A stretch of 64,000 bases of DNA from Microthyrium microscopicum (lineage: Eukaryota). The stretch covers positions 1,933,345 to 1,997,344 of the forward strand of contig MU004237.1 in assembly GCA_010405405.1 (NCBI GenBank), read 5' to 3'. Shown one piece after another: positions 7,441-55,470 of the stretch; positions within the stretch are counted from its first letter, which is position 1; each line of letters begins with the position of its first letter. The position numbers were made by a program, and so were the translations under genes. The notes beneath the pieces were generated by a model, which was not told the origin of the DNA, ran no database searches, and worked only from the letters and a program-made list of their open reading frames with translations.

Positions 7441-9559
7441 TCAGAACCTTCCTCGATGAAGGAACCGGTTTGGCAAATAAACATGCTTTGATCGTAAATA
7501 CTCGCAAACATTCTTTCCCAAAGTATCGTAAGTGCTCGTGGAGTTGAACCCACGATCTAGATGATCTCGTAGCAAGAAATGTACTGCTCGTATACCCGGT
7601 ATCTCGAATCGCTCGACTTTGCCTCCCTTGTACTCCTCTTCCAAGAGCTCTTTGATCTTGTCAATCGACAATACGGTTCGGAGCCAGTCCCATTCGTCAT
7701 CTTTTCTCACATAGAACCCAATGTTGGCATCTGACGCTTTATCACCGGATCTACCGCCAACAATCCAACCTAAAGGTCCCCGTGTACAAGGTCCGAATTT
7801 GCTGAGGTCGATTGGATCTTTGGTATCGTAGCTTGGTTGGTCACGTTGATACTCTTCCATCTTCGCCGCGGGTTTGATATCGATAGTCTTGTTATTTTTC
7901 CATGGTAGTATCACTCGGTGCTGCACCTCAGATTGTGGAAGAAGAGTGGGATAATACTCGTAGTAGAGCTTGCCCTCCGATTGTCTCTGATCATTGCCCA
8001 AGGTCCATCCTGGGCATCCTTGAAGGCCATTGTCCATACACCATCGATTGAATCCTGGTACATCAAGCGTAGCTTTTGAGACCAGGCTTTTGTTTTGAGT
8101 TTGAACAAATACTCGTAGATCGCAAGTGGCCACGTCCTGATTACGAGGGTTATCAGGACAATATCCATTCAGAGTAAAGTTGAAACAAGATAGTTCCTTT
8201 GCCGCATCGCCAGCAGAGTATCGAATCTGCCTTTCGATCCATTCGGCCTTCGCTTCGAGATCCAAGCCACAGATGAACACATGGAATTCCGCCTGATAAC
8301 CACCAACAGCAGTTAATCCGACTTTGGTGGTCCTTGGTGGAGGGCGACCTTTGACACCAGCAACTTTGACGCGATCTTCTCCAACTTGAGTCATAACGAT
8401 CCCTTCTAGCAAAGCAGTGACATCAGAGCCATAGTAAAGCGGACCCTGAATTTCGTAGAGCAGCTGAGATGCTACTGTCCCAACGGATACCTATGTGGAA
8501 ATTAGTTCGATCCATAATGATGGGAAACTGATGGAAATAGGCTCACTTCTCCACCAGTACCGTTAGCTTCTTTTGTAATAACACAACTTCCGTCTTCATA
8601 TAGTTCTGCAATGGGGAAGCCAAGATTCTCACACTGTTCAATAAGTCGTTTGAAGCCAGAAAAGTAGCCGCCTGAGAGTGTCAGTCACGCCTTGTAAGGG
8701 ATAGAGAAGAGATCAGTACCTGTGACATATGCAGCACATTCAATGAGATGTCCACAAATAAGAGATCCGGCGATTTGATCAAAATCAACTTCTTTATCCC
8801 ATCCATGCCACCACATTCCAGCTAAAACGTACGTCAGGAAATGGGCATAATCGTTCCTTCACAAAGAACTCACCTCCGACTGAAGGAGCTGCATCAGCAA
8901 CGCGACCACATATAACGATGTCCGCGCCAGCTCGAAGAGCTTCAGCTATTCCTGCGCCACCTAGATAGCACCTTTCTAGTGAGTGCAAGCGTGGTTAAAT
9001 TGGGAGATTTGACATACTGAGCATATATTGGCGTAAACCCCCAATCTTTGAGTTCAATGCCGTCCATCAGACTAACAAACTTCTCCCCCTGTTTAATCAA
9101 TTGATTCACTCTCTCCGTCACCTCGTCTCCTTCAACATACGCCACTTTGAGATCGAGTCCCAACCTTTTCACCTCCGCTTCAACCGTTTCCGCGAGAAGC
9201 TTCGTGTCTGAGGCGCCAGCATTGACAGCAACTTTGATGCCTTTAGTCTGGATATCGTGTAGAGCTGGCGATAAATTATCGATGAAGGTGGGATCGAACA
9301 AGCCAATGGGTTCCTCCATGAGCTTGCCTGCAGCTCGTAGCTTCTCATTGTCAACCTTTTGAGCTCCATGCAATGTCATTGTGCATTCTGATAGCCAGTC
9401 ACCAACGATGACATCGATGTCCAGCTTGGCCAGAGAGCTGATCGCGCGTTGGCGGTCAGAGAAGCCGCCTGAAGCACCGGCAATGCGTACAGGTCGTTTC
9501 TGATGCCCATTGCTTGCACCATTGGAGTGTCCATTCGATGGTCCGTTTGCTGTCGCCAT
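7441..9559 (-). CDS. AtuA-like / DUF1446 (acyclic terpene utilization family) protein, multi-exon
   Basis: Motifs RIAGASGGFSDR, GDWLSE, YLGGAGIAEALRAGADIVICGRVADA, GHLIECAAYVTG and C-terminal GRSGDKASDANIG...DTLGKN. About four short introns between 8490 and 9016. Confidence 0.88.
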
Positions 9560-9807
9560 GGCTGTGCCTGCAACGCTTTGGTAAAATTCAAGATAGTATC
9601 AGTGAACTGTAAATGGGTATGCCTGGAATCGCATCCAGATGCATTGCTGGCTAGAAAGGCCAGCAGAAATAGCCGCCATTGTACAACTTATTCCCATACT
9701 CTTTTCGGCATGTTCCAGCCGCTGCAACCAACCAACAATGGTCTCAACCAAAGAACATCGCGAATGGTGGTGAACAAGTTGGAGCTTTCGCGACGCGTCC
9801 GGAAGTC

Positions 9808-10560: not shown

Positions 10561-10997
10561 TCCAACTCAACTTCCACTCCTACTTTTTGCACGGATTTGA
10601 AGACACACTCCTGATCTTATGATGAGTGAGATGTGCATACAGGGGCCTATTTGATCTCATGTTCATTTGAACTAAACATATATTGGCCAGTGGCTGCGGT
10701 TGGAGCGGCAATGGCGGAGGGTGACTCCATCCACTGCTAAAGACCTCCAACTCCACTGAAGCGTAGAGTACCAGACATGGAAATACAAGGCCGGTAAGTG
10801 CGAAGTATGTTAGGGAATCAAACCTCAATTCGCAGTGATTTCGGCTCCAACTGCAGGCAACTTACTTTCCATACTCCACAACATACACTGTGACGTTGAT
10901 AATCACTCATCTCATTAAGCGGAAGCCTATAGCTCAAAACTTTCAAGCCTTGGACACTATCGAACTTCCACTCATCAGATCTTGACATAGGATCGAA

Positions 10998-11747
10998 ATG
11001 TCTCTAAAGGACAAAGTCATCGTTATCACTGGCGCCGCAAGCGGTATGGGACTGGAAACCGCCAGACTCCTGGCTTCCACTGGTGCCAAAGTTTCCATGG
11101 CGGACGTTCAAGAAGGTCCACTCAAGGAAGCCGCCGCAGAAATTGAGAAAGCTGGGGGCACAGTGATGGCAACAGTCGTGGATGTCCGCAATCGTCAACA
11201 AGTCGAATCCTGGATCAAGGCCACAGCAGAGAAATTCGGCAAGCTTGACGGTGCCGCAAATCTCGCTGGTGTCATTGGCAAAGGAATCAACATGACCCCC
11301 ATACAAGATATCGATGATGACGACTGGGACTTTGTCATGGGAGTCAACACCAAAGGACTGCTGAATTGTATGCGGGCCCAAGTACCCTACTTCAATGATA
11401 ACGGATCCATTGTCAACGCGGCCAGTGTTTCTGGGGTTATTGGATCACCGCGGAATGCCTCTTATGTAGCGTCGAAGCACGCGGTTGTAGGCTTGACGAA
11501 GGTTGTCGCCAAAGAACTTGGCCCTCGACAGATTCGATGCAACTGTTTCTGCCCTGGATTAATTGACACTCCTATGGCGAGGCAAAGTGCTGCTATTCGA
11601 GGCTCGAAAATGCCTACCGATCATATGGCTTTGAGGCGCCAGGGAGAGGCATCAGAGGTTGCAAATTTGATTGAATTTCTGCTCTCCTCCAAATCGTCTT
11701 TTATCACTGGAACAACACAAATGATCGATGGAGGATGGGTTTGCTAG
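10998..11747 (+). CDS. Classical short-chain dehydrogenase/reductase (SDR), intronless
   Basis: TGAASGMG nucleotide-binding motif, NLAGV, YVASK catalytic motif, CPGLIDT, IDGG. Confidence 0.93.
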   Translation: MSLKDKVIVITGAASGMGLETARLLASTGAKVSMADVQEGPLKEAAAEIEKAGGTVMATVVDVRNRQQVESWIKATAEKFGKLDGAANLAGVIGKGINMTPIQDIDDDDWDFVMGVNTKGLLNCMRAQVPYFNDNGSIVNAASVSGVIGSPRNASYVASKHAVVGLTKVVAKELGPRQIRCNCFCPGLIDTPMARQSAAIRGSKMPTDHMALRRQGEASEVANLIEFLLSSKSSFITGTTQMIDGGWVC

Positions 11748-15042: not shown

Positions 15043-18000
15043 AATGCAGGGTCGGATTGAAACCTATGGAGCAAAGATGGTCAGGCATAAAAGCTCATAT
15101 AACTGGCCTGAAAAGCCTAAAACAATATGAAGGATGTTGAAGATTGCACTAAGAACATTGGAAATCGTGAAGGATACAAGAACAGGATGTTTGTTGTCGG
15201 CCAAAGGTCCCGGTATTCGATGTCCGGTATTCGATGGCAGCGGTTGTCCAAAAGACTGGCGGTTGATGTGGTCAAGCTCGACTCGAAGTTTTATTTTCAG
15301 GCGATGAAACCAATTTCAGGTAGCTACGTATGAGGCGGAGATCAGAGTCGTTATTTCTCGCGAACTGGGTAGTCGCTTCTGTGCACGTCTTCACGTTGAC
15401 AGATACCTCAGTCACGATTGAGATTTAACTTGCCACAAGCGCCATGACGTTGTCGGTTTTGATCCTTCAGATGAATTATGTAAACTTTGACGGACATTTT
15501 CACGAGGCTTGTAGCTGCTTTGTTTCTCCTAGTCGTTGAGTCTTAAAATCCTGGGGCAAAAATGGAACAAGTTCAGCTTGGTGTTGAGTGCGACCCTTGG
15601 TTATTGCTGCTTTAACTTTCGAGTGTTGGTATGTTCAGGAACATGGCAGCGACCTGGACGATTGCGACTGCCTAAGTGGTATATCCGGAGGAAACCGAGT
15701 TGTTGCGCTCCCTTGTTCTTTCTCTTCACGTTCGTGATAAGTAGACGGGAAGGTGCATACTAGCTCCGCGATGTGCAACTCTAGCCTTTCTCCGGATGGT
15801 TCGTGTATTTTCAACGTTCTCGTGGACTACCTAAGAACAGGAAAGAAATTATGTGCTCACTTACCGGCGTGACAACAACTTAGTGTTGTGATTACCCACT
15901 CCCCTTCCAGTCCAATGGCACCAGGTGAATATAATGAGCCAGTAGGTTATTAACAGCGACGTTTTTCGTTTCGGGCGAACGGTAATGCCATGGTAGTTAT
16001 TAAAACGACCTCTTGAGGTATTGCGTGGGCGTCGAGATAGCCGCAATGATTTGGAGATGCGGGATTCTGTAGGAAGTGGATAGGAATGACGGCGAGGAGG
16101 TTTGAAAGTGGCTGGTATATCAAGCTGTTGTACCAGCATCTGGAAATTATGCCCGATTACGCCAATGTCTAGTCTCCTTACATAAAATCTGTCAAGCGGT
16201 GCGGACCTCTCCGGGAGTCGGAAGTCGAATCGTGCCAGTCGAGTTGAAGTTAGACGAATTGAAGGCTCAATAGCTGCGTCACTGTCCCTTGGAGGACTTG
16301 GAGGCTCTTTGATGGACCTAAAAGCCGGGCATTTCCGTCCGCGCTGGTAGGCTGTTGACTTCCTGCGTGTCCAACAATGCAAGGTTCCAGTACATTGTGG
16401 AGTGGATTGGGAAGATGGAGCACGAGCTGATAGAACTCCTTCAGAAAAAAGTCGAAATAGGACAGAGAGGGGAGTAGGAAAACAGCATCTGGCTAGGATC
16501 AGCATAATAATAGAGTGCTACATGGGTCGCGTTTACTACCATATGTCACCCATTATTATTGTCATATTGGTTGTAGAGAGATCGATATTTGCCAGTGAAT
16601 CCTTCCACGCCATGTAAAGAATGGCTGTCGCAATGACCACCCTTGGGATCAGCTGGCTTGCCATGCTTGGGGATTCTAGAGCAGGGGATGACGATCCAGA
16701 ATATTGCCCAGAAGCAGGAATGCTGCTGTGAACGAACCATTCTCCAAGGGGAAAACCTTGATGTTGTTAATATATGACTATGAGGATGTAGATATTCAAT
16801 ATCGGATATGCCAGGGTCCTGGTCAGGTTGTTTGAACTGGTCATAAAACAAGGTTCAATAGAGTAAGATCAAGGATCAAGGATTGGCTAAATCAGGTACC
16901 ACACACAAAGGTATGTACAACACGAGTTCGGCCTCTTTCACTGATATTGTTGATCTTCCTAGATCTTCAAAGAGCCCCGTAGAACAACTTCCAGATTCGT
17001 TGGTGCTGCCAACTTTTGATAATGCATCTCAGGGAGGCTCGAGAAAAATTCCGTGTGAACATCAGAACGCTCATCTCTAGCTAACCACATCATGGAATCA
17101 AAAAACGTGGCCACCGGGAACGCGGTCTTCAACTTCTCTAGAATGCCACAAGCCGAAAGCATTTTGGGTAGTTGATCGGTAGGATATTCTGTGTAAACGA
17201 GGCCAACACACGTGGCCCTAACTTCGTGATAGATATTGAGAACAAGCTTAGGATCAACTTTTCCTAGCAGTCCCCTAGCATACCGCCTTTCACTAGGGTT
17301 TGACTGAAAGGAAACAAGGTCGGTATTCTTGATTCAGACTTTCTGTCATCTGCATATCAATCAGACTAGAAGGATAGCCCCAAGCTATTGTTGTTGTCAA
17401 AATAGTCGAAAAAGAGTTGTCAAGAAGACAAAAACGTTGAAAATAGTAAACAAAAGACATACCTTGATGGTCCAGATCAGCCAGGATAGTCCTAGAAGTG
17501 ACTTTCCAAAAATCGTTCTTGAGAGCCAGATTTCTCTAGCAAGGAAGCGTAGCGTGGAGCAAGGCCTCTCCCCATACTGTTACTAACCCTACTACGCCGC
17601 ACGCGAAGATAGTACGCGGGATGATCATTGGCCCCCAGGAATTAATCTATCTTTCTAGATTGCTAACTTTCCATTCGGCCCGTCTTCCTTCGAAGATACC
17701 TGCCTTTCTGTCGAACGTAGCTGAGAATCATCTGTACTCGCCTGTGGTAGAGTAATCTATGGTAGGTTCAGCCGCGGTGCAGATTGTGCAGCAACGTAGG
17801 TCAAGTAGCATATAGTGAGCAAATGCAGGATTAGGAAAAACCCTGTGTTGGAGGTCCTAGAACAGTTGCAGAATTCGTACAATGCTAATCTTCGTTCATA
17901 ATATTGAGTAAGTAAAATGGTGAATCTGCGATACCTTGAAGCAGTTGTATGACAGTACCTGGACAATGCTAGAAGTACCTCTTTTGTGCCTTTCGAATTT

Positions 18001-18390
18001 CATGGCAAGCCAAATATTTTGCAGTAATGCAAAGAAAACGTCCGCCTGGGACTCGATCAGTTATTGAAGAACTGAAAGCAAGGGGAGACCTACTTGGCGA
18101 TCCACCCACTGTCACTTGCTTAGCGGCAGTTACACAACTTCAATCCATTACCACATTACCATACTCTTTGGTAATTCTCCAAGGTATTGATCATTCAAAT
18201 ACCAGGGGAGAATGATATGATTGCGTTAAATTATCAGGACTAACTACCTCGTAGCTATGCGCTGGGATCGTCTTCATTTGGAAGTTCTGTTTTTATCCGG
18301 ATCGCTCGAGGGGGTATCATGATGCTGAGGTAAAAAACCCGGTCAAGGGAGTCATATGCTGGGAACGTAACGTCGTACTTCGGATGTGAT

Positions 18391-20069
18391 CTACTTGCGA
18401 ACAATTTTCAAGAGAGGAGCAATTCGAACTCGTTTGCTGAGACCGACCCGGTGAGGCCCTTTTCCATCCCGTGAAACACCAGTAGATTTGGTCGTCTTCG
18501 TCTTGATTTGAATCGACTTTAGTTCTTCGCCAAGTGTGATGTTCTCTTTTGCCTGATCGGGTTCACTGGGCTCCTTTGGAATTTCTTCGTCTTCCGTCTT
18601 AAGCAGGGGAAAGTCGGCAGCTTTTTCTGTCAATTGCTTGACTGCATTGTCGCTCTCTTCCATGATGACTTTGTCAAGATCTTGAACTGCGGCTTCGTCG
18701 TCCAGAACTTTGACTGGAGTTGTCACAGAGCCTTTCTTGGGTCGACCACGACCCCGTTTCTTCGCCATCTTCTCAGTCTGAGGCGTTTGAGTCTCGTCCA
18801 CAACTTCTTGATGTTGATCTGGATGGTTTTCTGTTGCTTGTAGTAGAGGAATTTCAACGACGACCTTAGATTTCGAGTCAACCTCTGAATTGGTGGTTAA
18901 GCCTTGAAAAGTTGTAGTGTCCACAGCTGTAATCTCTCGTGGTTCCGGAGGATCTTCATCGGATACCGCGATGACATCAGCATTTCCCTCCTTGGCTTCT
19001 TCTTCATCCGCCACTTCGGGCTCTGTAACAGACTTTCTTGGTCGTCCTCTCTTCTTTCGCTTTTCCTTCTGCGCAGCTGGCTTTGGAGTCTCCATTTGCA
19101 GCTCGTCGGTCTCGCCATCCTCAGGTTTCGAACGCTTCCGTTTCATTTTGGAGGTTGACTTATCGGTCAATGGAGTGTCAATTGGTTCAACATGATCCTG
19201 AGAAGTGATCTCGAGTATCTGCGGAGTACCAGGAGGCGTCCAATTTTCCTGCACTATGGGCTGTTCAACCATTGCAGCCGCCGTTACATTCTCTTGCGCG
19301 ACATCTGTTTCTGGGTTCTTATCGGTGTTGACCACGGCATCATCAGTGTTCAGAGTCGGTTCTTCGAGAAGTGCAACTTGATCTTCGACTCCCTTGGTCT
19401 AAATTAGCTTTGAAGCAACGCTAACAACAATAGCCACGTACCGCTTCAGAATTGATCAATTGTGACCAATTAAGTGATGATTTGACCTTTTCGCCATCCA
19501 CCAACTCCCCAGCATATTCTGGAACTGTAGAAAGTTCCGGTGGTCCCATATGCATGTGCATTTGCTCTAGAACTCTCCGCTGTGTTGCAGATGTATCAGG
19601 AATCGTGCTAGCCCCTTCAGAAAACATGGTATGCGGTTGGTGCTGGTTGAATTCTTCCTGCATACTTGGCGGAAGATTCCAAACTGTGCCGCCATCCACT
19701 GGTTGAGTTGTGTGCATCACGGAGTATTGTTCGCCAACGCTCTGTGGAATCAGAACATGATCACTGCTAGAGCCTTCTTCTCTATCCGCCTGAACTACGG
19801 GCGATCGTTGAATAAGGGATCGTTTGCGCTTTTTGGAAGTCGGGGTCTCCTGATGCGATATGCTCCCTTTCGATATGGGCGCAATTGGTGAGGACTCCAC
19901 GTCGTAAATAGACGTTTTCTTTGCTATGTAACGCGTTAGATGGAGATATCAGCCATTGAGTGCGCTTACCTGACGCGTTTGTTGTTGACATGGATCGTCG
20001 AGTTGGAACTGGTGAGATTGGAGCATCGAGTCCATCCTCATCATCGGAGTCCTGGATTACTCTAGGCAT
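18391..20069 (-). CDS. Acidic, disordered AT-hook protein with conserved C-terminal RVGLSKR motif
   Basis: Exons 20069-19970, 19918-19442 and 19398-18391 join in frame. Starts MPRVIQDSDDED; AT-hooks KKRGRPRK and KRGRGRPKK; ends HRVGLSKRVRIAPLLKIVRK. Confidence 0.85.
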
Positions 20070-20136
20070 GTTGATAGACCTATCGATCAACTATTGCAGT
20101 GAGCTGTCGCGGGAGTGGCATGAGTGGGGAATTGCG

Positions 20137-20142: not shown

Positions 20143-23100
20143 CGAGAATTGAAGAATGTTACACGTAGTCACGTGCCAGTGACGATTCGCGTCGTTCCTT
20201 CCCGAATCCCGTCTTACAACTTTGAAAAAAAGACTCTACAAATACAAAGGCCCAAATTCATGCACGTACCTTAACTTAACGAAGAGATTAGAGGTGTACG
20301 ATCACGTTCTGATGTTATTACCCCAACTTCGACAGCCAGTCGAGATAGCGAATCCCAGGTCGTTCAAGACACACTCGATCTCTTAATCAGTTTGCTAAAA
20401 GCTCGAGAAAAATAGACATAATCATCACTCGCAGCAGTACTTCATCTTTCTATGGTTACAATTGTGTATACCGTATCCTGCGAAACGTAAAGCCCATAAA
20501 TACGACGAATGAGCTTGGAATTCTCTCATCCGAGGTTGCCACCCCGACGGACCAATCTCAAAGTGCCCACCACCTGTGCCTCCTTACTCGTGGTCCACGG
20601 GGCTTCGCACATTCAGTTTGCCAATGGTGGGCAAAAGGAAACCGATAACATCACGCCTAATTTGGAAAAGTACAACTTTGCGACTTTTGGAGGACCTGAA
20701 TGCATGTCCAATCATATGCAAACTGACACCGAGCAACTGACCCTTTGGAGTGGTAGGGTTACTATCATAACTCCACTTCGTGAAGATGATCACCCGCTGT
20801 GACGTATAACTGTGGGACGTTTGGCATTTTGCGGGGAAGCCAAAAGTCTGGGGAAACTGCATCGGAAGGCTTCCGCAACTTCTTTTATTGGGGAGCGTTA
20901 GCAGATAATTATTGAACAGGATTTGAACAGGATTTGAATTCCATAGCTTTTTGCTACTAACCTGATGGAGGGCTGATCCGCGCTAGTGGCGTAAATGTGT
21001 ATTATTAAGTAGGGATAAATGGTGTTATATAAATTTCCCCTATACGCGTTTTTAGGTCATAATCTAGCGTATTTTGACTATAACGCTATTAAATAATACC
21101 TAAAATAGACCCTATTTGAAAGGAATTAGCTATAATAACTAGCGTTATAGTATTATTATTAATGCTTTATGTCCTAATTAAGGAAGAGCTTTAAGAATAT
21201 AGTTATTAACCTCTGCCTAAATATATTTATTGTAATTAGAGTCTTAAAGATAGATCTAATTGCCTAATGGTAATAGAATATTAGTAACTACTTTAAATTA
21301 GTAGAGGATAATATCTATAGTACTAATTAGTATATAATAGATTTAAGAAGGATGAAATCTTATAGCTAGTAGAGCTATTTAACCTTAAGAATATTATAAT
21401 TCTATACTGTCTCTATTTACTAGAGAAGGGCCTATTTCTACTTTATATAGTATTATATAGGTTAGCAAAAATCTATACTTATAATAATATTTATTAGCAC
21501 TTTGGAAGAAGTATAATATACCTAAAGACTTGCTTTAACGCTACTATTATATATCTTAACTAAAGATATATAGATACGCTATTAAGATTCTATCTATTAT
21601 TAATACTAAATTGAATTTATTAGTACTCTAAAGTAATTAATTAAGCTAGTAATAGTAATCTATTTTAGGGTTATATTAATGGTACCTATATTAATATCTA
21701 TAGGCTAATAAGTCCTATCTAAAGGTTATTATATTCTAGATATAATAAAGTATATTATATTAAATACTAGGTTATCTATTACTTTAATAGATTAATAATA
21801 GTAATAGATTTAGCATATTTAGAAAGTTTAAACAATTTAGGTATATTAATAGCGTTAGGTCTTAAAGATAGACTTTAATAGGTTAGTTTCTATACCGTTA
21901 AGATATAATAATATAATAACTTACCTATTTAGATATTTAATGGCGGTCTAAAACTATAGCTGTATAGCAACGTAGTATATCTAAATAACGACTTAATAAT
22001 GTTGCCTTTCTAAGGTATTTTGACCCTAGAATAGTGCTAATTAAATAAAGAGATATTAAAATATTATGTTGCTATTAAATAGGTGTTTAGTAATATGAAA
22101 GTATTCTTTAAGGGAGGGATATTAGATTTTAGGCTTAGGTTAAGGATAGGATTAATGCCTATTAGCGCCTATATATCTATTAGCTTCCTGTTAGCTAATT
22201 GTTATACTTATTTTAGAGGGAATATTATTTCTACTCGCTTTAAGATAGATCTACCTATAATTAAACGATACCTTAATCTAGGTAGTATATTTAATAGCTA
22301 GACACTATTAAATTTATAAGACTAGGGTAATTTAAATAGTATAGAATAGTTATAATAGTAGTTAAAGAGGTAGAAGTTATAAAGTAAAGTTAGATATTCT
22401 TACTAAAGGAGAAGAAGTTAATAGAGTAGAGTTAGCTAATTATTTAACTCTTTTATATACTTTTAAAGCTTTTAGTGTCTATTGTAATATTTCTATAAAA
22501 ACTAGATTCTATCTTTACTACTAATTTATATAAGAAATACTAGCCTAACCTTTATAATTATAATTAACCTAAAGACTCCCTTAATAACTTCTTTATCTTT
22601 ATTATCTTTAAGTAAGCTACTTTTACTTCTTTCCTTAATTTTATAACTTTATCTACTCCACTATTACTACTACTACTATTAATTTTACTACTAATAACTA
22701 TATTATCTTAAGTACTAGACTTATTAGAATTAATCTTTTCTAACTAAGTAACTAGGCTATTATAAATACTTATAATTCTATTAACCCTAGATATAGAAGT
22801 TTAAGTTCTACGCGTAGGTGCTAAAACTAGCGTTATAGTAGGTTAAGTTTAAATAAGTAGAGCTAGTAGGGTTGCTATAGCGTTATTACTACTTTTTACT
22901 ACTAGCGTAGTAGTAGGAAGTTAAGTCTCTAAAACTATAGCATCTTTAGGTTTAATAATTATTATCTTAAGATCTTTAGGTTAAATACTAGATAGAAGTG
23001 CTCTCTTCTTAGCGTAGGTTAGGCTTAAAGATATATAGAGCTTTATAACTTTTTTACGCTATTTTTAGATAGTAACTTAAGTTGCTCTTCTTAAGTTTAT

Positions 23101-23266
23101 ATAATTCTAATAACTATTATAGGTTTCTATAAAGTTATCTAAAGTAATATAGAATTTATTTATTAATATATTATGTCTTAACTTATCTTCTAGTTTAATA
23201 TAGCGTTAAGTAATTACTTGTTTAATTGCTTATTAAATAGCTTATTTAGAGGGTCCTTAGGGTAAA

Positions 23267-23626
23267 TATTAGGAATTAAACCTAATGAACTCTCTAAGAT
23301 AGGTATTATAGCCTAAGTACCTTAGCCTAATAGCTATTAGAAGCTAGCAGAGCTGCTTCTTTAGCTTTAGTATATTCTATAGTTAAGAGAACTAATAGGT
23401 TCTTAACTATTATAATTAGTAGCTAAGCATACTTTTAAGGTACCTTAGCTTATAGATAGACTACTCTAGCTTAGAGAGAAACCTTAAAGGTTCCTAAGTA
23501 ATAAGATAGAGGCTAAGGAATTTCTTTATAGTTTCTTAGTAATTACTTCTATCCTTATTTCTATATATCTAATTTATTAAGTATCTTATAATCTTTTTAC
23601 TTACTTTATAACCCTAATCTCTAATA
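23267..23626 (+). repeat. 5' LTR of element 1
   Basis: Direct repeat of 31643-32002, differing mainly by C/T and G/A transitions; termini TA..TA consistent with RIPed TG..CA. Confidence 0.92.
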
Positions 23627-26600
23627 TTATAATTACTTTTTACTAATAGAGTGCCTATAAAGCTTTTTCTTTAAAATACTATAATTAGTTATAAATAATA
23701 AACTAATAAAACCTAAGGGTAAGGTCCTTAGAGTAAAACTAGCTAAACTAAATCTAGTTATACTAGATATAACTATACTAATACTAGTAGGACTAAGTAG
23801 CCCTATAGGTAATTTTACTAATATAGAATAAGCTTATTTAGAATTAGTAGTAAATATAAAAGAGACGCTAGAATAGCTATAAGCTAAAATATAGTAAATA
23901 TATAATATACTTAAAATTAAATAACTTAAAGTAATAAAAGTAGCTTATAAATATAAAGAACTCTACTTAGTTAAATAGATTAATAAATAGGATTAATATA
24001 ATACTAGCCTAGCTATTTTAGCTTATATTAAATATAATAGCTCTAAATTAGCTTATAGTAGTAATAAACTATAGATATATAAAGCTAAAAGTCTATAAGA
24101 GTATAAGGATTAGGTCTTTAATATAACTAATATACTTACTATAAAGAAATATAAGGAGGATCTATACCTAGTAGTTCTTTAAGCCTATAATTACCTTAAT
24201 AAGGAGGTTATATAACCTACTTAGAATAATTATGTTAATTTCTAGACCTAGTTAGCTAAACTAGATTAATATAAACCTACGTAGGCCCTTATAAAATAAT
24301 AGGCCCTTAAACTTCTTAATTTACCTATTAAGAAGTATTATAAGGCCTTTTAAAGCCTCCTAATTACTATAATAAGGAAAAAGACTCCTTAAGAATACTT
24401 TAATAAGCTTATATCTTTCTTTTATAAGTATAAGATTAATAACGTATTAATTTACTTATTATTCTTTAGTAATAGACTATCTACTTACCTTAGAAATAAT
24501 ATAATCTTTAACCTAGACTATATAGTTAAGATAGCTAAAAAAGCTTTATTTTAATATATTTTAAAATATTTAAGACTTATTAGTAACTAGAAAATACTAA
24601 CTACTCCTAAGAAAAATACTAAAAATAGTAAATTCTCTAAATAGCATTTAATATCTATAGATTTAGAGAATAAGACTTAATAAGGTTCTTAGAAGAATAA
24701 GTTAAAGAAGTCTAGATTAAGCTCTCCTAATAGGGCTTTAAAGCTAGATAAACTAAAGAGTAACGTAATACCTAAAATTAAATAGCTATTTTCTAGTAAC
24801 CTTAGTAAAGATAAGTACTAAAATTATAATAAGGTAGGCTATATAGCTTATAAGTGCCCTAACTTAAAGCTAAAGAGAATTAAGGAAAAAGACTAAGCTA
24901 TAAGGTAGCTAATTAGGATCTTATAGCTTCTATTATAAATAATTTAGTTCTTAACCTTCTTAGTAACTTCTATAAAGTTATTATTACTTAGGTTTTAGAA
25001 GTAGTAAAGAATAAGAGGATTCTAGATAAAGAGGTATACTAATTAAAGAAATTGCGCTAAATTATCTTATAAGGAATTACTTAGAATTAAGTAGGCTAAG
25101 ATTATACGTTATAGAATATAATAATAGATAGTAGAGCCTATTTTAATATTATAGACTATGCCTTAGCTAAGAAGCTTTAATTAAAAATATATTATCTTCT
25201 AGAGGAGTTAGCTAAGTACTTAAATAGTATACTTATAGCTATCTATAAAGTAGTAACTATTAAAGTAATAGTAGTTAACTTTAATAGGATCTTAAAGACT
25301 AATAAGGTATTATTTTGTATTATAGACTTATTATACTATATAATTATTATAAGAATGCCCTAGCTTAAGGATTAGAACCCCTTACTAGACTTTAAGGTTA
25401 AGACTTTATTTTTTATTTATTTAGAAGATAACTACTATAATAAGATTAGCTCTATCTTCCTAGAGAAATTGCTTTAATTAGGTTAAGATAAATCTACTTA
25501 GCTCTTTAAGTATTTAGTAAATTTATTAGACTATATTAGCCTATAAGACTTACTATATTATTATAAGAGGCTTATAGAGACCTTTAGTAAGGATAAAGCA
25601 TAAGATTTAGTAGAATATAGTCTATAGGACCTAGCTATTAACTTTAAGCTAGGTATAACTATACCTTATTAGCTTATTTATAGCTTATTAAAAGTAGAAC
25701 TAGTTATTCTATATAAATATCTTAAGAAAGATCTTAAGAGAGAATTTATTTATAAATCTTAGTCTTCTATTAAAGCCCTAATTATCTTTATAAAGAAGAA
25801 GAATAGTACTTTACGTTTATATATAAACTATAGAAGCTTAAATAATATTATAGTTAAGGATTATTATACTCTACTACTAATTAAAAAGTTACTAGACTAA
25901 CTATTAAGAGCTAAACTCTTTATAAGCTTAGACTTTTATAAAGTATATTATTATATCTATATTTATATTAGTAATAAGTAGAAGATAGCGTTCTAAACTA
26001 AATATAAGTCTTTTAAGTATTAAGTAATACTCTTTAAGCTTACTAACGTTTTTACTACTTTCTAAGTATATATTAATTAAGCCTTATATAGCTTTATTAA
26101 CGTAACTTATATTATCTACCTTAATAATATCCTTATCTTCTCTAAGAACGAAGAAGATTATATTAAATATATAAAGAAGGTACTTAAAAGACTTATTAAG
26201 TTTAAGTTATATACTAAGCTATTAAAGTATAGCTTCTATATAAACTAAACTAAGTACCTTAAGTACGTTATAACCTTAAATAGTACTATAATAGAACTAG
26301 AATAGATTATAATAGTTATAAATTAGCTAATACTATATAATATATACTAAGTAAGAAAGTTTATTAGCTTTATAAATTACTATTAACGTTTTATTACTAA
26401 CTTCTTTTATATTACTTCCTTATTAAACTCTTTAACTAAGAAGCTTTTAAGGTAGGCCTTAAAAGACTAATAGCTACGTAATAAGAAATTAGTTCCTATT
26501 AACCTTTCTTCTAAAGCTATTTAATCTTTTAACGACCTAAAGATTACCTTTACGTATATATTAATTTTTACTTATTATAATTCTATATTAAAGACCTATT

Positions 26601-29600
26601 TAGAGATAAACGCCTCTAGATAAGTAATTTATAGTATTTTAAGCTAAAAGTAAACTAAGCTAGGCTAAAAGAGCTAATAGTAACTTATAGTATTTTACTT
26701 AAGAAAGCTATTAAGACTTAAGAGTTACTATAGGACTCTATAATAAAAGTTCCTAGCTATTATTAACTTTATAAAAATCTTTTATAAGTATCTATATAGT
26801 ATTCTAAAGTTCTTAGTCCTAATAGATTATATAAACCTTTATTTACTTAATACGTCCTAAAATATTTTTACTATATATATAAGATAGATAGATTTCCTTA
26901 CTAAGTTTAAGTTTAATATTAAGTACTATTTAGGAAAAATAAACCCTATAGATAGACCCTTATAAAGACTAGACTATATCTCCTTAAGTAATATAGAATA
27001 AAAAAGAACTATAGATACCTTATTAAACCTTATCTAAGATAAACTATAACTATCTAAGGTCCTTAAGCCTAATAAAGACCTAGTTAGGTTTATTAATACC
27101 TTAGTTATATTTATTAGTACCTTATTATAGTACCTAAGAAATAATTCTTAAGAAGTAAATATTATTACTACGTTAGACGTACTTAATAGCTCTCCTACTA
27201 AGCTAATAGAAGATAAATAGACTTATTTATAAATAGAAGTTACTATAAAGAATAGTAAAGTCTAAGTTCTTTAACGTTTTTATAATAACTTTCTAGAAGA
27301 AGGCTATAAAGACTAATATAAGATATTAAAAAAGATTTAATACTATTATACTTAGGATAATATTAATAAGAATATCTAAGAGTACTATATAGCTTATTTA
27401 AAGTATAAATAAAATACGTCTATTAAATAAAGCTAAAATAGGCTCCTTCTACTCCTATTAATATTAATAGCTCCTTAGAAAGATATTATAATTAATTTTA
27501 TTACTAACTTACCTCTAAGCGTCTTCTAAGGGTAGCTATATAACTCTATTATAGTAGTTATTTATAAATTAACTAAAATAGCTTATTACGTACCTTATTA
27601 TAAAGATATAAATATAAATAATCTTACTAAGCTTTTCTTACGTAAAGTAATATAACTCTATAGCGTACTAAATATAATTATATTTAATAAAGGCCTTATA
27701 TTTATCTCTAAGTTCTAGAATATATTCCTCTACTACTTAAGGATCTAATAAAAGCTATCTACTATATTTTAACCTTAAATAGATAGATAAATAGAGTATT
27801 AAAACTAAGAGATTAAGTACTATCTATATATCTACTATAGCTAAGAGTAAGATAATTAGGCTAAAAAGCTTAATTCTACTAAGTTTATATATAATAATAG
27901 TATATATAGCTTAATTAGTATTACTTTATTTATAGCATATATAGATAGATACTTATATATATTAGAAGTATCTAAAGAGTACTTAATAAATACTACTTTT
28001 AACGCAAAGAAATTAGTAGAATATATTCTATCTTTTTAGAAAGCTCTTTAGGCTTATCTAGAGAATATTTAAACCTTATAAGCTAAATATTATAATAAAA
28101 GCTATAAGAACGTTACCTTAAAAGTAAATAACTAAGTTCTACTTAATATAAAGAATATTAGAATAGCTAAGTCTAAAAAGAAACTAGATATTAAGTATAT
28201 AGGCCCTTTTAAAGTAATAAAGGTTATTAATTATAATACGTATTATATTAACTTACTTAAGAGCGCTCTAGTTTATAACGTCTTTTATATCTCCTTATTA
28301 TAATAATATATATCTAATATATATTTCTTATAATAAATAGTCTTACCTTAGAAAACCTTAGACTCTAAAGAGATTAATTACTATAAAGTTAAAGATATAA
28401 TTAAATATAAAGTTAATAAAGATAGTACTTATTACTATAAAGTAAAGTAGAAGAACTACCTTATATTTAAAGTAAGTTAGAAACTTATTAGTAACCTCTC
28501 CTTAGTTATACTAAAGCGCTACTAAGAGAAGTTAAAGAAAAAAGGTATCTCCTTAGCTAAATTAGCTCTAATAAGAGTAACTAAATATAAATTAAAATAA
28601 CTTAACTTAGATAAACCCTATTTAGAGCCTAAGAAGCTAAGAGGATATCTAAAGAAGCCTTTAGTATCTATTAAATCTATACTAGCTAAGAAAGAGCTAA
28701 GTAAACTAAAATAGTTATAATAAGACTTAGAATAAGCCTCTTTTTATAAGGAAGATAAGTATAAAAGCGTAGTTACTCTATAGCGTATATAGATATATAA
28801 TAATAATTTATCTTACTTATAATTAAGATAAACTTATTTAGATAAAACTAAATAGTACTTAGATAGTACTATTATAATACTTTAGAATAAATAGGTTCTT
28901 ATAAATATATATATAAATATAGTCTAAATAGAAAAGACTTAGAGAAAATTTAGAACTAGATATAGAACTAATTTTAAACCTAAACCTAAAATTATTAGTA
29001 TTACTTTAGCTTTACTTATTAACTTTTAAAAAAGTACCCTTTAAATACCTTAAAATAATAATTTTAGGTTTATAGAAATATACCCTTAGATACTATTTAG
29101 GTTTATAAGAGAAGACTTAGAAATTTAAGAAAGTATTTTATTAAAAGAAACTATCTTATACTATTTATATAAATTAGTTTAAATAAAACTTAATAGCTAC
29201 TAAGTATTAATAAATAGCTTATAATAAACCTAAAATATAATTAATCTTATCTATTAAATACTAGACGTATTAACCTAATACTAAATATATCTACTAGATA
29301 CTATATTTACTCTTTAGACTCTTTAGACTCTTTAAACTCTAAATTATTATCCTTAGAATTAATTTAATCTATTATAACTAAATAATAATAAAAAACTACC
29401 TATTTATTTATTCTAAGCTTATACTTATTAATTTAGCTCTAAAGGGTTATAAACTAACTTATATTAAAAACCTTTTTCTTCTTTTTAGCGTTATTAGCTT
29501 ACTAAGAAGTAAGTATCTTTATAATGTTAGTAAGATTACTAATTTAACGTAATAAAGTACTTATAATTTAGAATAAAGTTAGTTAGAATCTAAGTAATAT

Positions 29601-31642
29601 AACTAGAGTACTTATACCTTTTTAGCTACTATTTATAAATAGTTTAAATCTATAATAATAGGCGTAAAGGTTATTATAGTACTTAATATAAGTAGTATTA
29701 ATAATAGCTCTAAGTAGAACTACTTTAGAGTAATAGGTAGCCTTCTTAGTTATAAAGACCTTTTTGCTATTTTTATAATATACTAGTATTATATAGATAC
29801 TATTATATCTATTCTTAGTAATACTAGAATATAAAGAGAAGGTATTATTTATAGTATTAATATAAATATATCTATTTATATTAGTTTAAACCTAAGTATA
29901 ATAAGAGGGTTTACTTATATCTAAATAGCTTTTATAACGTTCTTATTAGTAATATAAACTACCTTTTTAGTATAAAGGAGCTAACTTATATTATACTTAC
30001 TTAGATTACTATTATAAGTTTACTAATAAAGTATATAGATCTTTATTACGTTATAATATTTTTAAAGAAGGTTCTTAGTAATGCCTTTCTTATAAGGAAT
30101 AACTTAGAAAATAATTAGTAATAATTAGATTTAAATTAAATTAATTAGAAATAACTTACTTTAAGGTACTACTAATAAGACTTAGTAGTCTTATAAGTTA
30201 TATAGTAGTAACTATTTTAAACCTTAAAGGCTAATATATAGTCCTTAGAAGCTATATAGTACTAATTCTTTAGATTAGTATATAGGAAAGTCTTAGTATA
30301 TACTTTAGTATATTATTAATATAGATTAAGTATAAGAAACTATTTAATAATTAACTTAGCCTTATTCTTATATAGAATAGACTTATTTATATTAGATAGT
30401 TCTATCTTATTATTATTAAAGTTATATAAAAGACGTTTACTATCTAACTAACTATAATTAATTAATACGTTATAGATAAGAGAAGTTTAGTATAATTTAA
30501 ACTAAGCCTAAGCCTTATTAGTATATATAATATTATTATTATATATTTACTTCGTATTAAGCTAAGAAGGTTTAGATTTACTATTATAGTTATATTTAGG
30601 AGCCTTTTCCTTCTTTTTAGCTTAGGTAGTATCCTTTTTAATCTCCTTAGATTTAGAAAGCTCTAAAGAGAAGTAGCTTAAACTTAATAGTTTAATATAG
30701 TTATTATTAGTATTAATTTAGGTACTATTAATAAATTTAACCTTATTAATTACCTTTTTAGTAGTATTAGTATTAGTAAAATTAGCTAGTTTTATAACGC
30801 TAGTAATTAGAGTCTTTAGTAAAGTAATAGTATCTTTAGAGACCTTAGAGATATCTTTAAAGACCTTAGAGGCGTTAGATAAAAATAGACTAAGTCTATT
30901 TAGAGCCTTATTAGTTTTTACTTTATTCTTTATAGTAGCTATTAAAGAGAATAAGTATAAAAGGATATAAAGTATACTAAGTAGATTTATAAGGAAGCTA
31001 CTAGTAAAATATTAAGACTATTAGCTAAGACTTATTTTTATACTATAGCCTTATTTATAAAGGTTAGCTTTACTTAATTAGCTAGGGTTTACTTAGATAT
31101 ATATCTTAATTTTATAAAAGTAGAATAAAAAAAAATTAGAAGAAGTACGTAATTATAAGATTAAATATACTTTATTTAATACTTTCCTACCTAATTAGGT
31201 TAATAAAGAGTAAATATTTACTTTATTAAGTACTTCTTATTAAGGAAAGCTTTAATATTAATTCTTACTATAAGTAAAGATTCTAAAGAGAGAAGTTACC
31301 CTTAGTAGGTAATAACCTATAGATTAGGTAGGCTTAAAGTAATAGCCTAAAAAAACTTAAAAACGCCTAAGTCTTTAATAAACCTAGATAAACCTAAATA
31401 GGTACCTAATAGTAATATTTAGCTTTATAAATTATTATTTAAGGAGTACTTCTTTAAGTAACGTTTAAAACTAATAATAGGTTTACTAGGATTTACTAAG
31501 ATTATTATTTAGCTAGCTAGATAGTAGCTAAGTAATTTATACTATTATAATATAATATACTTTAAAGTATATTAGTACTATTAGAACGTAGTTAACCCTT
31601 TAGAGACTTATAAGGACGTTTAGGTTCTTATTAGAGGGATAA

Positions 31643-32002
31643 TATTAGGAATTAAACTTAATAAACTTTCTAAGATAGGTATTATAGCCTAAGTACCTTA
31701 GCCTAATAGTTATTAAAAGCTAGTAGAGCTACTTCTTTAGCTTTAGTATATTTTATAGTTAAAAAAACTAATAAGTTCTTAACTATTATAATTAGTAGCT
31801 AAGTATACTTTTAAGGTACCTTAGCTTATAAATAGACTACTCTAGCTTAGAGAGGAACTTTAAAAGTTTCTAAGTAATAAAATAGAGGCTAAGGAATCTC
31901 CTTATAGTTTCTTAGTAATTACTCTTATTTCTATTTCTATATGCCTAATCTATTAAGTATCTTATAACCTTTTTACTTACTCTATAACCCTAATTTCTAA
32001 TA
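31643..32002 (+). repeat. 3' LTR of element 1
   Basis: Direct repeat of 23267-23626, preceded by AGAGGGATAA and followed by TSD GTAAA. Confidence 0.92.
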
Positions 32003-33283
32003 GTAAATCTATGCCTATTTTATAGGCTATAGTAATATCTTTCTACTACTTTAACTTCTAGTTACTAATAGTACTATTGCTATTACTATTATAGCTATCT
32101 TTTAGTTAAGAAGTATAAAGAATTGTATTAGTTAAGATACGCCGTTTCTATACTAAATTCTACTTTATTCCTTAATAAGTAGTAATAGATCTAGGAGTAC
32201 TAAAAGGAGCTCTAAATTCTTAGCGACGTAAGGGCCCTATAGTAGTATTTTAAGTAGTAGGCGTCTCTATTAGTAGGCGTTAAAGAGCTTGTATTAGGCT
32301 CTAAGATGTTAAATCCTACGTAAAGCTATCTAGCTCCTTAGTAGGGGTATTTTAGCGTAGATAATTAGTATCTTAAAGCTAAGTTTCTAGTTTAACCTAA
32401 GTCTCTAGGTTAAAGTAGTATAGATTTAGCTAGTAAGTGCTAGGAATTAAGGCATATAGTAATACTAATCTTAAAGTAGGTTAAATATACTATAGTTTTA
32501 AAGATAATAATACTAGTAACGGCTCTAGCGTATACTTAGAATATTCTAAATATAGTAGAGGAAGTATAATAGAATTATAAAGCTTAGGATTAATCTAGTT
32601 TAATAGTATATTAAACGATATTAGCATTAAATTACTTAGTAAATTTCGTTATATTTTAAAGGAATTACTAATGTTAAAAATAGATATTTTAAATTTTAGC
32701 TTTATCTATATAAATAGCATTATTTTATATTATATCTATATTAAAATTAATATTATTAATTATTGTTTTTGCCTTTAGTATATTTAACGTATTTAAGATA
32801 ACTTTATAATCTTTATAATAATACTATTCTATAGGACTTACGTAAATACAAGATGACGTTAAAAGAAACCTCATGCTAGGCTTAAAGAGGAAATAAATAC
32901 GCTAATTTATTAGTTTAAATCTAATTTAAGGTCTTTAAACTAAGTTTAAGGGCCTTGAATAGGATTTAAACTTACTAACCCGATTAGGAAGAGATTAGTT
33001 CCTACGGAGTATTCCGAGGGACCTGGATTTGAATTGCTGACGCTGCCCATTTTGCAACGAAAGTTCCGCCAAACATTGAAGTTCATCGCAGAAACTCGGT
33101 GCTCGGTTCAAAGCATATAAATCGCCATCTTCACAAGGAAAAAGAAGCTTGGGCCCAGAAACCCCATAAACTGGCCCGTGGAAATTGTAGATCATCTCTT
33201 TTACACTTTCAATACTACTAATCTCTTCCACACTTTACCAATCCTTCTACCTCTTCTTCTTTACGACATAACCTCACATCACA

Positions 33284-35793: not shown

Positions 35794-36990
35794 ATGGCCG
35801 ACAGTCAAGAGCAGTCCCAAGGCGGATTCGATGAGGCCGTTTCTGGCCCTGGCGCACCCATGCCGCTCACTCAACTCGAGGTTCGTAAATTCATGGGAAC
35901 ATGTCCGAGTAAATGCTAACTTGCGATCAGGGTGTGAATGGCATGACCAAACGAGACATCCAGCTCTTTGTCGATGCTGGATACCATACCGTCGAGTCCA
36001 TCGCTTACACGTATGTGCCTCCTTGGTAGTGGCGAGATAATCCAAGCTAACATTCATAAGTCCGAAGCGCATATTGGAACAAATCAAAGGTGTCTCCGAA
36101 CAAAAGGCGAATAAAGTACTCTCAGAGGCCCAAAAACTTGTCCCTATGGGATTCACCACTGCCACCGAGATGCATTTGCGACGAAGCGAACTCATATCCA
36201 TCACAACAGGCTCAAAGCAGCTTGACACATTACTTGCGGGAGGCATAGAGACCGGCTCTATAACGGAGGTGTTTGGAGAGTTCAGAACGGGAAAGAGTCA
36301 GCTGTGTCACACTCTCGCCGTGACATGTCAATTACCGTTCGACATGGGTGGTGGCGAAGGCAAATGTCTCTACATCGACACGGAGGGAACATTCCGGTAC
36401 GCGGCCAATGCATAATTGAGAAAGCCTCCAGCTAACATCGCCCTAGTCCAGTTCGTCTTCTTGCCGTAGCCCAGCGATTCGGTCTCAATGGCGAAGAAGT
36501 CCTAGACAATGTCGCTTACGCCCGTGCCTACAACTCAGAACATCAACTTGAACTCCTCAAACAAGCAGCTCAGATGATGACGGAAACTCGCTTTGCCCTG
36601 CTTATTGTTGATTCCGCCATGGCTCTTTATCGCACTGACTTCTCTGGTCGTGGCGAGTTATCAAATCGCCAGATGCATCTCGCGAAGTTTATGCGTACTT
36701 TGCAACGACTGGCGGACGAGTTTGGTATCGCGGTCGTGATAACGAATCAAGTTGTCGCACAGGTTGATGGTGGACCAAGTGCAATGTTCAATCCAGACCC
36801 CAAGAAACCTATCGGAGGCAATATCATCGCGCACGCATCGACTACTCGTCTCTTCTTCAAGAAGGGTCGTGGGGAGACCCGTGTGTGCAAGATCTATGAC
36901 AGTCCGTGTCTGCCAGAATCGGATTGCCTGTTTGCGATCAACGAGGACGGCATCGGAGACCCGAGCCCCAAAGATCTAGAGAAAGATTAG
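35794..36990 (+). CDS. RAD51: DNA recombinase Rad51
   Basis: PMGFTTA, Walker [20 protein letters not shown], Walker [35 protein letters not shown]. Introns 35881-35930, 36011-36060, 36397-36446. Confidence 0.97.
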
Positions 36991-37364
36991 TCGCACAAGA
37001 CCGAAAAGTGTGGCCTCGTCCAGTAAGAACGGCTCTGGAGTGGCATTCTGTTTCATCGTGGGGGGTTTCCAGCGGGCGTTTAGATGTTATGATGTATGCT
37101 TTGTAATGGAATAGATCATGATAGACCATTTTGTACAAGTTAAAAATGAAATCTTAAGCACAGTCTTAGTCTAAGATGTGGTTCTGTAAAAAGTTGGAGG
37201 TGACTCGTGAGACAACACCAACTGCTATAGAAGCTTGGACCACCTTCAATTGTTGTCCATCTCGCATCTGATGTTTCTTAAATCTTCCTAACTCACCTTT
37301 CTCTCCAACAACTCTCCGACCCCCCATCATCATCTTACAAATCCGCCACGGTCAATGGAACAGG

Positions 37365-54519: not shown

Positions 54520-55470
54520 TATTAGTAGTTATAGAGTTATAGATAATATAATATATAGATTTTAATAAAATATATAAGTATATATATTTACTTTTATTAT
54601 TAATAAATAATATAATAATATACTTCTTTAGTTCTAAGTTATAGTATTATAGTATAGTTTAGTAGCTCTATAACGTAGTATAGGTTTAATATCTTATTTC
54701 TATTTAGTTATTATAATATAAAATAGCTTATAAAGTTAGTACTTTTTAAAATATAAATAAATATAGAAGAAGATAAGATATATACTAGATGTTACTATTA
54801 TACTAACTACTATAGAATACTCTATATATATTTATTAAATAGATATATTAATAATATATAATTTATTAATAAGATTAAAATAAAAATATAAGAAAATAAA
54901 TATATAAAGATTAAATTTAATATATATTATAATATCTAGTATTTAATAGTACGTTTAAAAGATTTAGATAAATATTATATAGTATTATAATGTTATTAAG
55001 TAGGTCTATAACGTTATATAGGTTTTAACTCTTATTTATATTTAGTTTCTATAATATAAAATAATATATAGAAAACTACTTTATAAAATATAATATTATC
55101 TAGTAGAAAATAAGATATATAATAGGTATTACTATAATACTACTTATTAGGAAATACTTTAGAGATTCTAATTATATAAATATATTAATATTATATAATC
55201 TACTAATAATATTTTAATAAAAATATAAAAGAATAAATATATAATAAATAAATTTAATATCTTTTATTATAACTATAATAAAAAAGTAGTCTTTATAGTT
55301 TTTTATAAGATTTAAATATTATTATAACGCTTAAGAGTAGCTCTATAACCTTATATAGGTTTAAAGTCTTATTTATATCTAATTTCTATATAATAAAATA
55401 ATATATAAAAAAGTTACTTTTATAAATATATTAAGATCTAGAAAGAGATAAGATATATATTATATATAGT
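54520..55470. repeat. Diverged tandem repeat, period about 337 bp, about 3 copies
   Basis: The block TAG(C/G)TCTATAAC..TATAGGTTT..TCTTATTT recurs near 54663, 55001 and 55338. Confidence 0.75.

Follow-up and report, generated by a model that had tools for sequence, protein, structure and literature searches.

Here we report the analysis of a gene of the fungus Microthyrium microscopicum (Dothideomycetes, Microthyriales) whose product is probably a Rad51-filament-binding accessory protein, judging by the likeness of its C-terminal tail to peptides that occupy a cleft of Rad51 in solved complexes. The gene lies on the minus strand at 18391..20069 of a stretch of 64,000 nucleotides (GenBank assembly GCA_010405405.1, contig MU004237.1, positions 1,933,345 to 1,997,344; hereafter the window), and it encodes the 527-residue database protein P0001, deposited as 'hypothetical protein BT63DRAFT_457259' and named 'AT hook domain-containing' in UniRef. 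The candidate Rad51-binding peptide is the tail H508-K527 (HRVGLSKRVRIAPLLKIVRK, 18394..18453, minus strand), as indicated by its conservation, by matches of the Pfam family RAD51_interact to the tails of relatives and by a match to the yeast protein Hed1. The best explanation of the sequence comparisons is that the gene belongs to an uncharacterised Pezizomycotina family of disordered, nuclear proteins with an invariant C-terminal peptide, and that a known type of Rad51-docking peptide probably occurs here in a new, differently built protein family. A sequence-only reading of the window had proposed an unrecognised fungal Rad51 accessory factor; this proposal now stands as a well-founded hypothesis, stripped of its description as a RAD51AP1-like gene linked to its partner.

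The family was delineated by searches of increasing depth. A word-based search with exon 3 returned the protein itself as the sole match, and an exhaustive phmmer search over 1.84 billion representatives gave 60 proteins at E<=1e-3, of which six reached E<=1e-10. These 60 matches are seemingly all fungal family members or fragments, and every one whose name was looked up is a fungal hypothetical protein. Nearly identical tails end 43 of the 61 stored proteins, the others being short models of a conserved middle block only. Of the 8,000 candidates scored from a 5.8-billion-protein collection, 730 matched a profile built from 40 tails at E<=10; among the 120 matches listed, the named ones are 'hypothetical' or 'UBA domain-containing', and their sources are mostly Dothideomycetes, with Lecanoromycetes (Usnea florida, Cornicularia normoerica) and Eurotiomycetes (Aspergillus bertholletiae) also represented. 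Ten family members checked by exact sequence are without a functional name.

The strongest signal in this family is the tail. In 35 full-length relatives that share just 20-27% identity with the window protein, residues R509, V510, G511, L512, L521, L522, and K527 do not vary, and conservation is at least 90% at S513, R515, R517, I518, A519, and P520; because these columns persist at so low an overall identity, no other element of the protein family is as well conserved as the tail. The core [RK][VILM]GL[SNT][RK], encoded by the last exon (exon 3), occurs in 146 of the 164 stored family proteins, and its start always lies 19 or 20 residues before the C-terminus, confirming that the pattern exceeds chance. 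The most frequent form, YRVGLSKRARIAPLL, was counted 78 times among the stored family proteins.

When 40 isolated 45-residue tails were compared with the Pfam library of 24,736 families, RAD51_interact (PF15696, gathering score 25 bits) matched 23 of them at E<=10 and was the only recurrent family, one other family having matched a single tail at E 0.15. Five of 33 tails reached E<=0.01, the best being the tail of P0033 (25.3 bits, E 1.8e-5), and tail positions 23-39 align with positions 19-35 of the 39 in the RAD51_interact profile. The same family was detected at E<=1 in 5 of the 35 full-length relatives, the lowest E being 0.0029. At E<=10, a search with a 40-tail profile against 177,635 distinct sequences of solved structures in the PDB returned a single match, chain G of entry 9e6n (E 0.0072, 19.4 bits), which is the 'Meiosis-specific protein HED1', a yeast Hed1 peptide bound to Rad51; the alignment pairs 'lskgKvpYRVGLSKR' of the tails with 'VDSNKVKYKVGLSKK' of the Hed1 chain. 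A 45-column tail profile again placed Hed1 first (E 0.017, chain residues 15-32), with a sole other row at E 1.9, and single-sequence phmmer searches of the PDB with the window tail and with the tail of P0007 gave 0 matches each. Two independent libraries, Pfam and the PDB, point by their sequences to two solved peptides in one Rad51 cleft.

The residues that align are those described as contacts in both complexes. According to the available text of Kuhlen et al. 2025, human RAD51AP1 contacts RAD51 filaments by Site-N (WVPP), Site-M (332-LRLGLSR-338), and Site-C (L345, H346). Site-M is there called 'the most important site' of RAD51AP1; its residues R333, L334, and L336 enter the RAD51 cleft, R333 has an acidic residue in RAD51's N-terminal domain as its partner, and among the mutants L336Q disrupts binding and H346A weakens it approximately 2.5-fold (PMC12704761). 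The human residues R333, L334, G335, L336, S337, and R338 correspond to R509, V510, G511, L512, S513, and K514 of the window protein, so that its segment H-R-V-G-L-S-K (residues 508-514) is identical to the Site-M core at R, G, L, and S, with V in place of L and K in place of R. The counterpart of L345 is L521, equally spaced, since L345 comes seven residues after R338 as L521 does after K514, and the counterpart of H346 is L522.

For Hed1, the accessible part of Shin et al. 2025 describes a peptide, K121-L153, that is visible on the yeast Rad51 filament, and a C-terminal loop whose V138, V143, Y145, and L149 lie in a Rad51 pocket made of A137, V140-F144, and G318-A320, while K146 pairs with Rad51 E108 and K152 with E156; alanine at V143, K146, L149, or K152 abolishes Hed1 action (PMC11974805). 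These four residues align with a conserved V of the family, R509, L512, and R515, respectively, and the stretch of Hed1 from 142 to 152, including the contacts V143, Y145, K146, L149, and K152, aligns with K-V-x-Y-[KR]-V-G-L-S-K-[KR] of the family. In both proteins the motif is close to the C-terminus. Along the fungal tail, the likeness is to Hed1 in the first half and to RAD51AP1 in the second, and the portion of a further report that we could consult places Hed1 and RAD51AP1 on one and the same RAD51 surface, deep cleft included (PMC13748634).

Several observations weigh against this assignment. The RAD51_interact scores of the tails are mostly 16-20 bits, nearly all of them under the 25-bit cutoff, and the window protein itself gave no match to RAD51_interact at E<=10, whether it was searched as exon 3, as a 40-residue tail or as a 45-residue tail; its tail deviates from those of its relatives in having H instead of Y or L before the core, and V instead of A after it. 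At Site-C the leucine of the anchor is kept, but the human histidine is replaced by leucine in all 146 family cores. No human RAD51AP1 chain was among the matches when solved structures in the PDB were searched with the tails. The Hed1 alignment leaves uncovered the three-turn helix that precedes the Hed1 loop (L124-F135, with I128, T131, and N132) and is likewise required for binding, and the fungal region before the tail (TPE...HSP) has no matched helix as judged from sequence alignment only. The likeness as a whole spans approximately 15 residues rich in Arg, Lys, and Leu, where convergence or a misleading match is possible. The proposal that this tail is of the RAD51AP1/RAD51AP2 type has thus fared unevenly: the Pfam check suggested for the protein's own tail came out negative even at E<=10 and the histidine anchor is a leucine, and yet the resemblance to the RAD51-binding motif of RAD51AP1 and RAD51AP2 is supported as real at the family level by the 23 of 40 tails, the exact Site-M to L345 spacing, and the Hed1 match.

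The same observations bear on the main rival explanation, in which the tail is unrelated to Rad51 and serves as a nuclear-import, nucleolar, or chromatin-docking signal of an AT-hook protein, its likeness to Rad51-binding peptides being coincidental. The tail is basic (KR...KK) and terminal in a DNA-binding protein, as such a signal might be, and the mostly sub-cutoff Pfam scores, the unmatched window tail, and the absence of the key human histidine all fit a coincidence. The invariant residues, however, are R-V-G-L and L-L rather than the basic ones, a pattern that fits a specific docking groove better than it fits an import signal; in both libraries the only recurrent matches were Rad51-binding peptides (one of 24,736 Pfam families and one of 177,635 PDB chains); and the aligned residues are those that contact Rad51 in the solved complexes. 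We consider this explanation unlikely, while giving it appreciable weight.

A second rival accepts Rad51 binding and reverses its effect: the protein would be a Hed1-like negative regulator, whose tail occupies the Rad51 cleft that Rad54 needs and so restrains strand exchange, for example in meiosis or in particular chromatin. Among solved structures, that of Hed1 alone matches below E 1, the tail half that precedes GLS is nearer to Hed1 than to human Site-M, and Hed1 competes with Rad54 for this surface, as stated in the accessible part of PMC11974805, where Hed1 is given 162 residues. Hed1 is a meiosis-specific, inhibitory protein. Against this stand the Hed1 helix touching the neighbouring protomer, which the alignment did not match, and the AT-hooks, SIM-like (SUMO-interacting motif-like) sequence, and usual UBA domain, which point to recruitment or tethering more than to a small plug such as Hed1, only 162 residues long. 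In addition, some Pezizomycotina have lost Dmc1, as reported in the text available to us (PMC7923544), which takes away the known rationale for Hed1-type inhibition there. Taken together, a Hed1-like role appears quite improbable. Given binding, we favour a stimulating or tethering role like that of RAD51AP1 over a blocking role like that of Hed1, because of the adaptor-like architecture and the loss of Dmc1 in some Pezizomycotina; this direction of the effect is pure inference, which counts against the firmness of the accessory-factor reading. To our knowledge, Hed1 has no AT-hook, UBA domain, or N-terminal acidic motif.

The receptor side presents no obstacle to the preferred interpretation of the tail as a Rad51-binding peptide. 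Contact positions were mapped on Rad51 with an offset of 56 from the yeast numbering, anchored on the VPMGF string. Among 43 Pezizomycotina Rad51 proteins E52, G262, and A264 are invariant, and V84, P85, G87, F88, E100, and I263 are at least 90% conserved; the Rad51 exons in the window carry the corresponding strings HTVES, KLVPMGF, RRSEL, and EFGIAVV. Such conservation is expected for so conserved a protein and shows only that docking meets no obstacle. A complex prediction with two copies of P0089, a stand-in Rad51 from Neohortaea approximately 87% identical to the Rad51 exons of the window, and the 45-residue tail received a score of 0.01 and a mark of 0.34, from a procedure that used no alignments and for which peptides lie outside the calibration; it tips the question of binding in neither direction.

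We propose that the tail would dock on Rad51 filaments in the cleft used by Site-M of RAD51AP1 and by the C-terminal loop of Hed1. In this arrangement R509 would pair with the conserved glutamate of the Rad51 N-terminal domain, V510 and L512 would occupy the hydrophobic VPMGF pocket, the glutamate of RRSE would be the partner of R515, and L521-L522 would take the groove of the human Leu-His anchor. The AT-hooks may hold duplex DNA, and the protein would then act as a tether between Rad51 filaments and DNA or chromatin, in the manner of RAD51AP1, which has DNA-binding regions of its own. At damage sites, the SIM-like motif could link the protein to SUMO marks, and the UBA domain of its relatives could read ubiquitin marks.

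By analogy, AT-hooks and a recombinase-binding-type tail in a disordered protein are the putative counterpart of the functional layout of RAD51AP1. RAD51AP1 and the fungal family both have the motif near the C-terminus of a disordered DNA-binding protein and both have a SIM-type motif, a putative one in the fungal family; the SIM of RAD51AP1 binds the SUMO-like domain of UAF1, according to the available text of PMC12751084. The two differ in that RAD51AP1 has the WVPP Site-N and the fungal protein has no WVPP adjoining its tail, and in that DNA binding by the fungal family would be via AT-hooks, unlike that of RAD51AP1. Since no likeness outside the tail has been shown and the comparison covers the tail alone, the similarity to RAD51AP1 is best described as a shared motif and not as orthology.

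Other Rad51 partners provide further points of comparison. Kovalenko et al. compared RAD54 residues 96-111 with the RAD51AP1/RAD51AP2 motif and gave 50% similarity (PMC1636435). The N-terminal peptides of Rad54 and RAD54B (FxxP/FxPP) bind, as described in the consulted parts of two reports, the same general Rad51 surface as the site proposed for the family tail (PMC11974805; PMC13748634), but with FxxP as the key motif and in the opposite orientation, and the W-[DN]-L-P-P sequence of the fungal family is far from its tail. Pfam reported no Sfr1/Mei5-type domain in the 35 family members scanned. Swi2 of Schizosaccharomyces pombe is said to combine AT-hooks with binding of Rad51 (Rhp51), and it binds through an Sfr1-like region together with Swi5.

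In the open-access literature, the consulted passages on Hed1 together with RAD51AP1 claim no sequence kinship between the two, figures and most supplements lying outside this scope, and RAD51AP1 is mentioned 0 times in Shin et al. (PMC11974805). Judged by titles and abstract openings, the papers listed for RAD51AP1 and fungi report no fungal homologues, and those retrieved with Hed1 and Neurospora report, in the portions covered, no Hed1-like protein in filamentous fungi. Searches of the same literature with the Pfam/InterPro accession and name of RAD51_interact gave nothing relevant.

Outside the tail, the disordered, acidic character of P0001 and its two AT-hooks, which the sequence-only reading had described along with the tail, were confirmed. 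The protein contains 94 D and E residues against 67 K and R residues, has a pI of 4.97 and only 10 aromatic residues, and its Atlas model has a mean predicted local distance difference test (pLDDT) value of 0.39. R-G-R-P cores with basic flanks occur twice, at residues 310 and 410: the first AT-hook spans residues 305-315 (KRKKRGRPRKS, 19030..19062, minus strand) and has a weak Pfam AT_hook match, and the second spans residues 404-416 (AKKRGRGRPKKGS, 18727..18765, minus strand), with the core sequence KKRGRGRPKKG. The Pfam AT_hook model (PF02178) scores 10.1 bits on P0001, under its cutoff of 17.4; sub-cutoff scores are common for this 13-residue model. AT_hook matches were found in 13 of 35 relatives, and G410 and R411 are nearly invariant in the family alignment A1.

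The layout of the family, as read from its sequences, appears to comprise an acidic SIM-like N-terminus, a middle block, usually a UBA domain, the AT-hooks, and the tail. The strict N-terminal pattern [VIL][VIL]xDS[DE][DE] is found near the start of 39 of the 164 stored relatives, many of whose models are fragments, and takes the family form M-x-R-V-I-Q-D-S-D-D-E. This acidic V-I-x-D-S-D-D-E motif looks like a SUMO-interacting motif, by what we take to be the consensus of such motifs.

The middle block has the consensus W-[DN]-L-P-P...F-x-Q-H-E-P..M-F-P..S-S-T-I-P-D-N-T..T-Q-R-R, followed by K-S-S-[IL]-P-W-S (alignment A6). It is the best-matching stretch in many matches of the exhaustive search with the window protein, and S139 and T140 in its region are invariant in the 35 full-length relatives. 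Pfam gave no match to the block, and a PDB search with alignment A6 gave 0 matches. In databases it is often deposited alone as short gene models of 98-260 residues. In some members it starts with W-L-P-P, recalling the WxPP/FxPP recombinase-binding motifs, with prolines that are inconsistently kept. Two candidates for a Site-N like that of RAD51AP1 were rejected: a WTPP at residue 245, found in this protein alone, and the W-[DN]-L-P-P of the middle block, whose PP is present in only 7 of 14 sequences. The remaining W.PP matches in the family fall within the middle block.

Pfam detects a UBA domain (PF00627, MGF...AL...G...L) in 23 of 35 family members. The segment is deleted in the Microthyrium protein and its nearest relatives (P0002, P0004, P0006, P0008, P0013, and P0060), and a second group lacking it consists of P0015, P0024, P0025, and P0053, which suggests that the ubiquitin-reading module was lost repeatedly while the tail was retained. 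A search for Atlas look-alikes with the whole protein returned a cluster of its own kind of AT-hook protein and weak leads only, and the same search with the tail alone gave no usable match.

The gene model is backed by a spliced transcript. P0001 fits the window letter for letter over three exons separated by GT..AG introns, with the start codon at 20069 and the stop codon at 18391-18393. Exon 1 (19970..20069, minus strand, as are all parts of the gene), placed by the P0001 mapping, carries the N-terminal acidic SIM-like motif RVIQDSDDED (residues 3-12, 20034-20063). Exon 2 (19442..19923) includes the middle block, the family's second conserved block, at residues 113-194 (19442-19687; WNLPPSMQEEFNQHQPHTMFSEGASTIPDTSATQRR ... 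KSSLNWS). Exon 3 (18391..19392) contains the disordered acidic region, both AT-hooks, and the tail, and corresponds to the minus-strand open reading frame 18391-19398 of 335 residues, which ends ...GKGPHRVGLSKRVRIAPLLKIVRK before the stop. Intron 1 (19924..19969) is 46 nt long and intron 2 (19393..19441) is 49 nt long. A 3,344-letter contig of X1, the one public run with this stretch and one whose RNA label is a guess of the tool only, covers 18000-20110 and omits exactly these two introns of the gene, its joints jumping 46 and 49 nt; the X1 contigs carry no information on expression level or growth stage. The contig also omits a third GT..AG stretch of 48 nt on the minus strand, at 18045-18092, and it runs approximately 390 nt beyond the stop codon with 1,376 further letters left of 18000. 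This extension is either a long 3' untranslated region with an intron or a merger with the next minus-strand gene.

The sequence-only reading had placed RAD51 one intact gene and about 4 kb away once an intervening repeat-induced point mutation (RIP) block is discounted, and had taken the protein for an accessory factor linked to its partner gene. The Rad51 gene, the proposed partner, was read as four exons on the plus strand at 35794..36990, with the Pfam family PF08423 matching its last exon at E 1.6e-87. The RIP block, with approximate limits at 20950..32950, is borne out by composition: between approximately 20.9 and 33.1 kb the G+C fraction is 0.23, the TpA/ApT ratio is 1.74, and the (CpA+TpG)/(ApC+GpT) ratio is 0.11, as compared with 0.66-0.69 and 1.28-1.29 for the two ratios in the gene-bearing parts. 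The distance holds up as well, the start codons of the two genes being approximately 3.7 kb apart without this block and a flavin monooxygenase gene (33272-35022) lying between them. A second X1 contig of 644 letters begins at 20275, in the interval separating the gene start from the RIP block; it may mark a small transcribed unit from 20275 onward, and RAD51 would then be more than one intact gene away.

The linkage itself did not survive comparison. The sample consisted of 36 loci from metagenome contigs scanned with seven close tails, the middle block being present upstream of the tail in 11 of them. A conserved linked module of the gene and RAD51, which their divergent orientation and the short distance discounting the RIP block would favour, is highly improbable, since Rad51 (tblastn, E<=1e-5) was found in 0 of the 36 related loci within the fetched flanks, 14 of these loci reaching 6.5 kb or more on the side that corresponds to Rad51 in the window, in contrast to the adjacency of Rad51 and Nup120, which recurs in a fused Talaromyces model. 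Nor did the 36 loci show any other neighbouring gene from the window at the corresponding position, monooxygenase-like sequence being present in loci L020 and L022 on the opposite side. The proximity of the gene to RAD51 is probably accidental, and the absence of conserved linkage, which counts against the accessory-factor proposal in its linked form, therefore removes the synteny argument alone, as the sequence-only reading had anticipated.

Other features of the window concern its wider surroundings. Nup120 lies directly after Rad51 on the same strand (the pair spanning 35794-40257), and the gene model P0126 of Talaromyces islandicus, 1,705 residues long, contains Rad51 and Nup120 Pfam domains together, which suggests that these two genes remain adjacent as far as Eurotiomycetes and that gene callers at times fuse them wrongly. 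A second AT-rich block with the RIP signature occupies 53901-64000 (G+C fraction 0.28, TpA/ApT 1.70, (CpA+TpG)/(ApC+GpT) 0.29). An AtuA-like gene of the acyclic terpene utilisation family lies on the minus strand at 7441-9598, split between two long frames and having an AtuA ferredoxin-like domain, and a short-chain dehydrogenase is encoded at 10986-11747; both are ordinary metabolic neighbours.

Filamentous ascomycetes have so far been credited with neither Hed1 nor RAD51AP1. In the consulted parts of the literature, a 2012 review calls RAD51AP1 vertebrate-specific (PMC3401455), and Hed1 is described as having no apparent homologues in higher eukaryotes and none known beyond the budding yeasts (PMC3401455; Shin et al. 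PMC11974805); the fungal family would extend such peptides to Dothideomycetes, Lecanoromycetes, and Eurotiomycetes. We tentatively suggest, as a possibility somewhat short of an even chance, that the family is a sequence bridge: Hed1 and RAD51AP1/RAD51AP2 would carry versions of one ancient opisthokont peptide for the Rad51 cleft, and the filamentous ascomycetes would have a Rad51 accessory factor of their own, in which this peptide is joined to AT-hook DNA binding and to the reading of SUMO and ubiquitin. If true, the cleft-binding peptide would be much older than thought, filamentous fungi, of which some depend in meiosis on Rad51 only, would gain a missing Rad51 regulator, and genetically tractable systems such as Aspergillus would become available for studying how the Rad51 surface is shared among competing partners.

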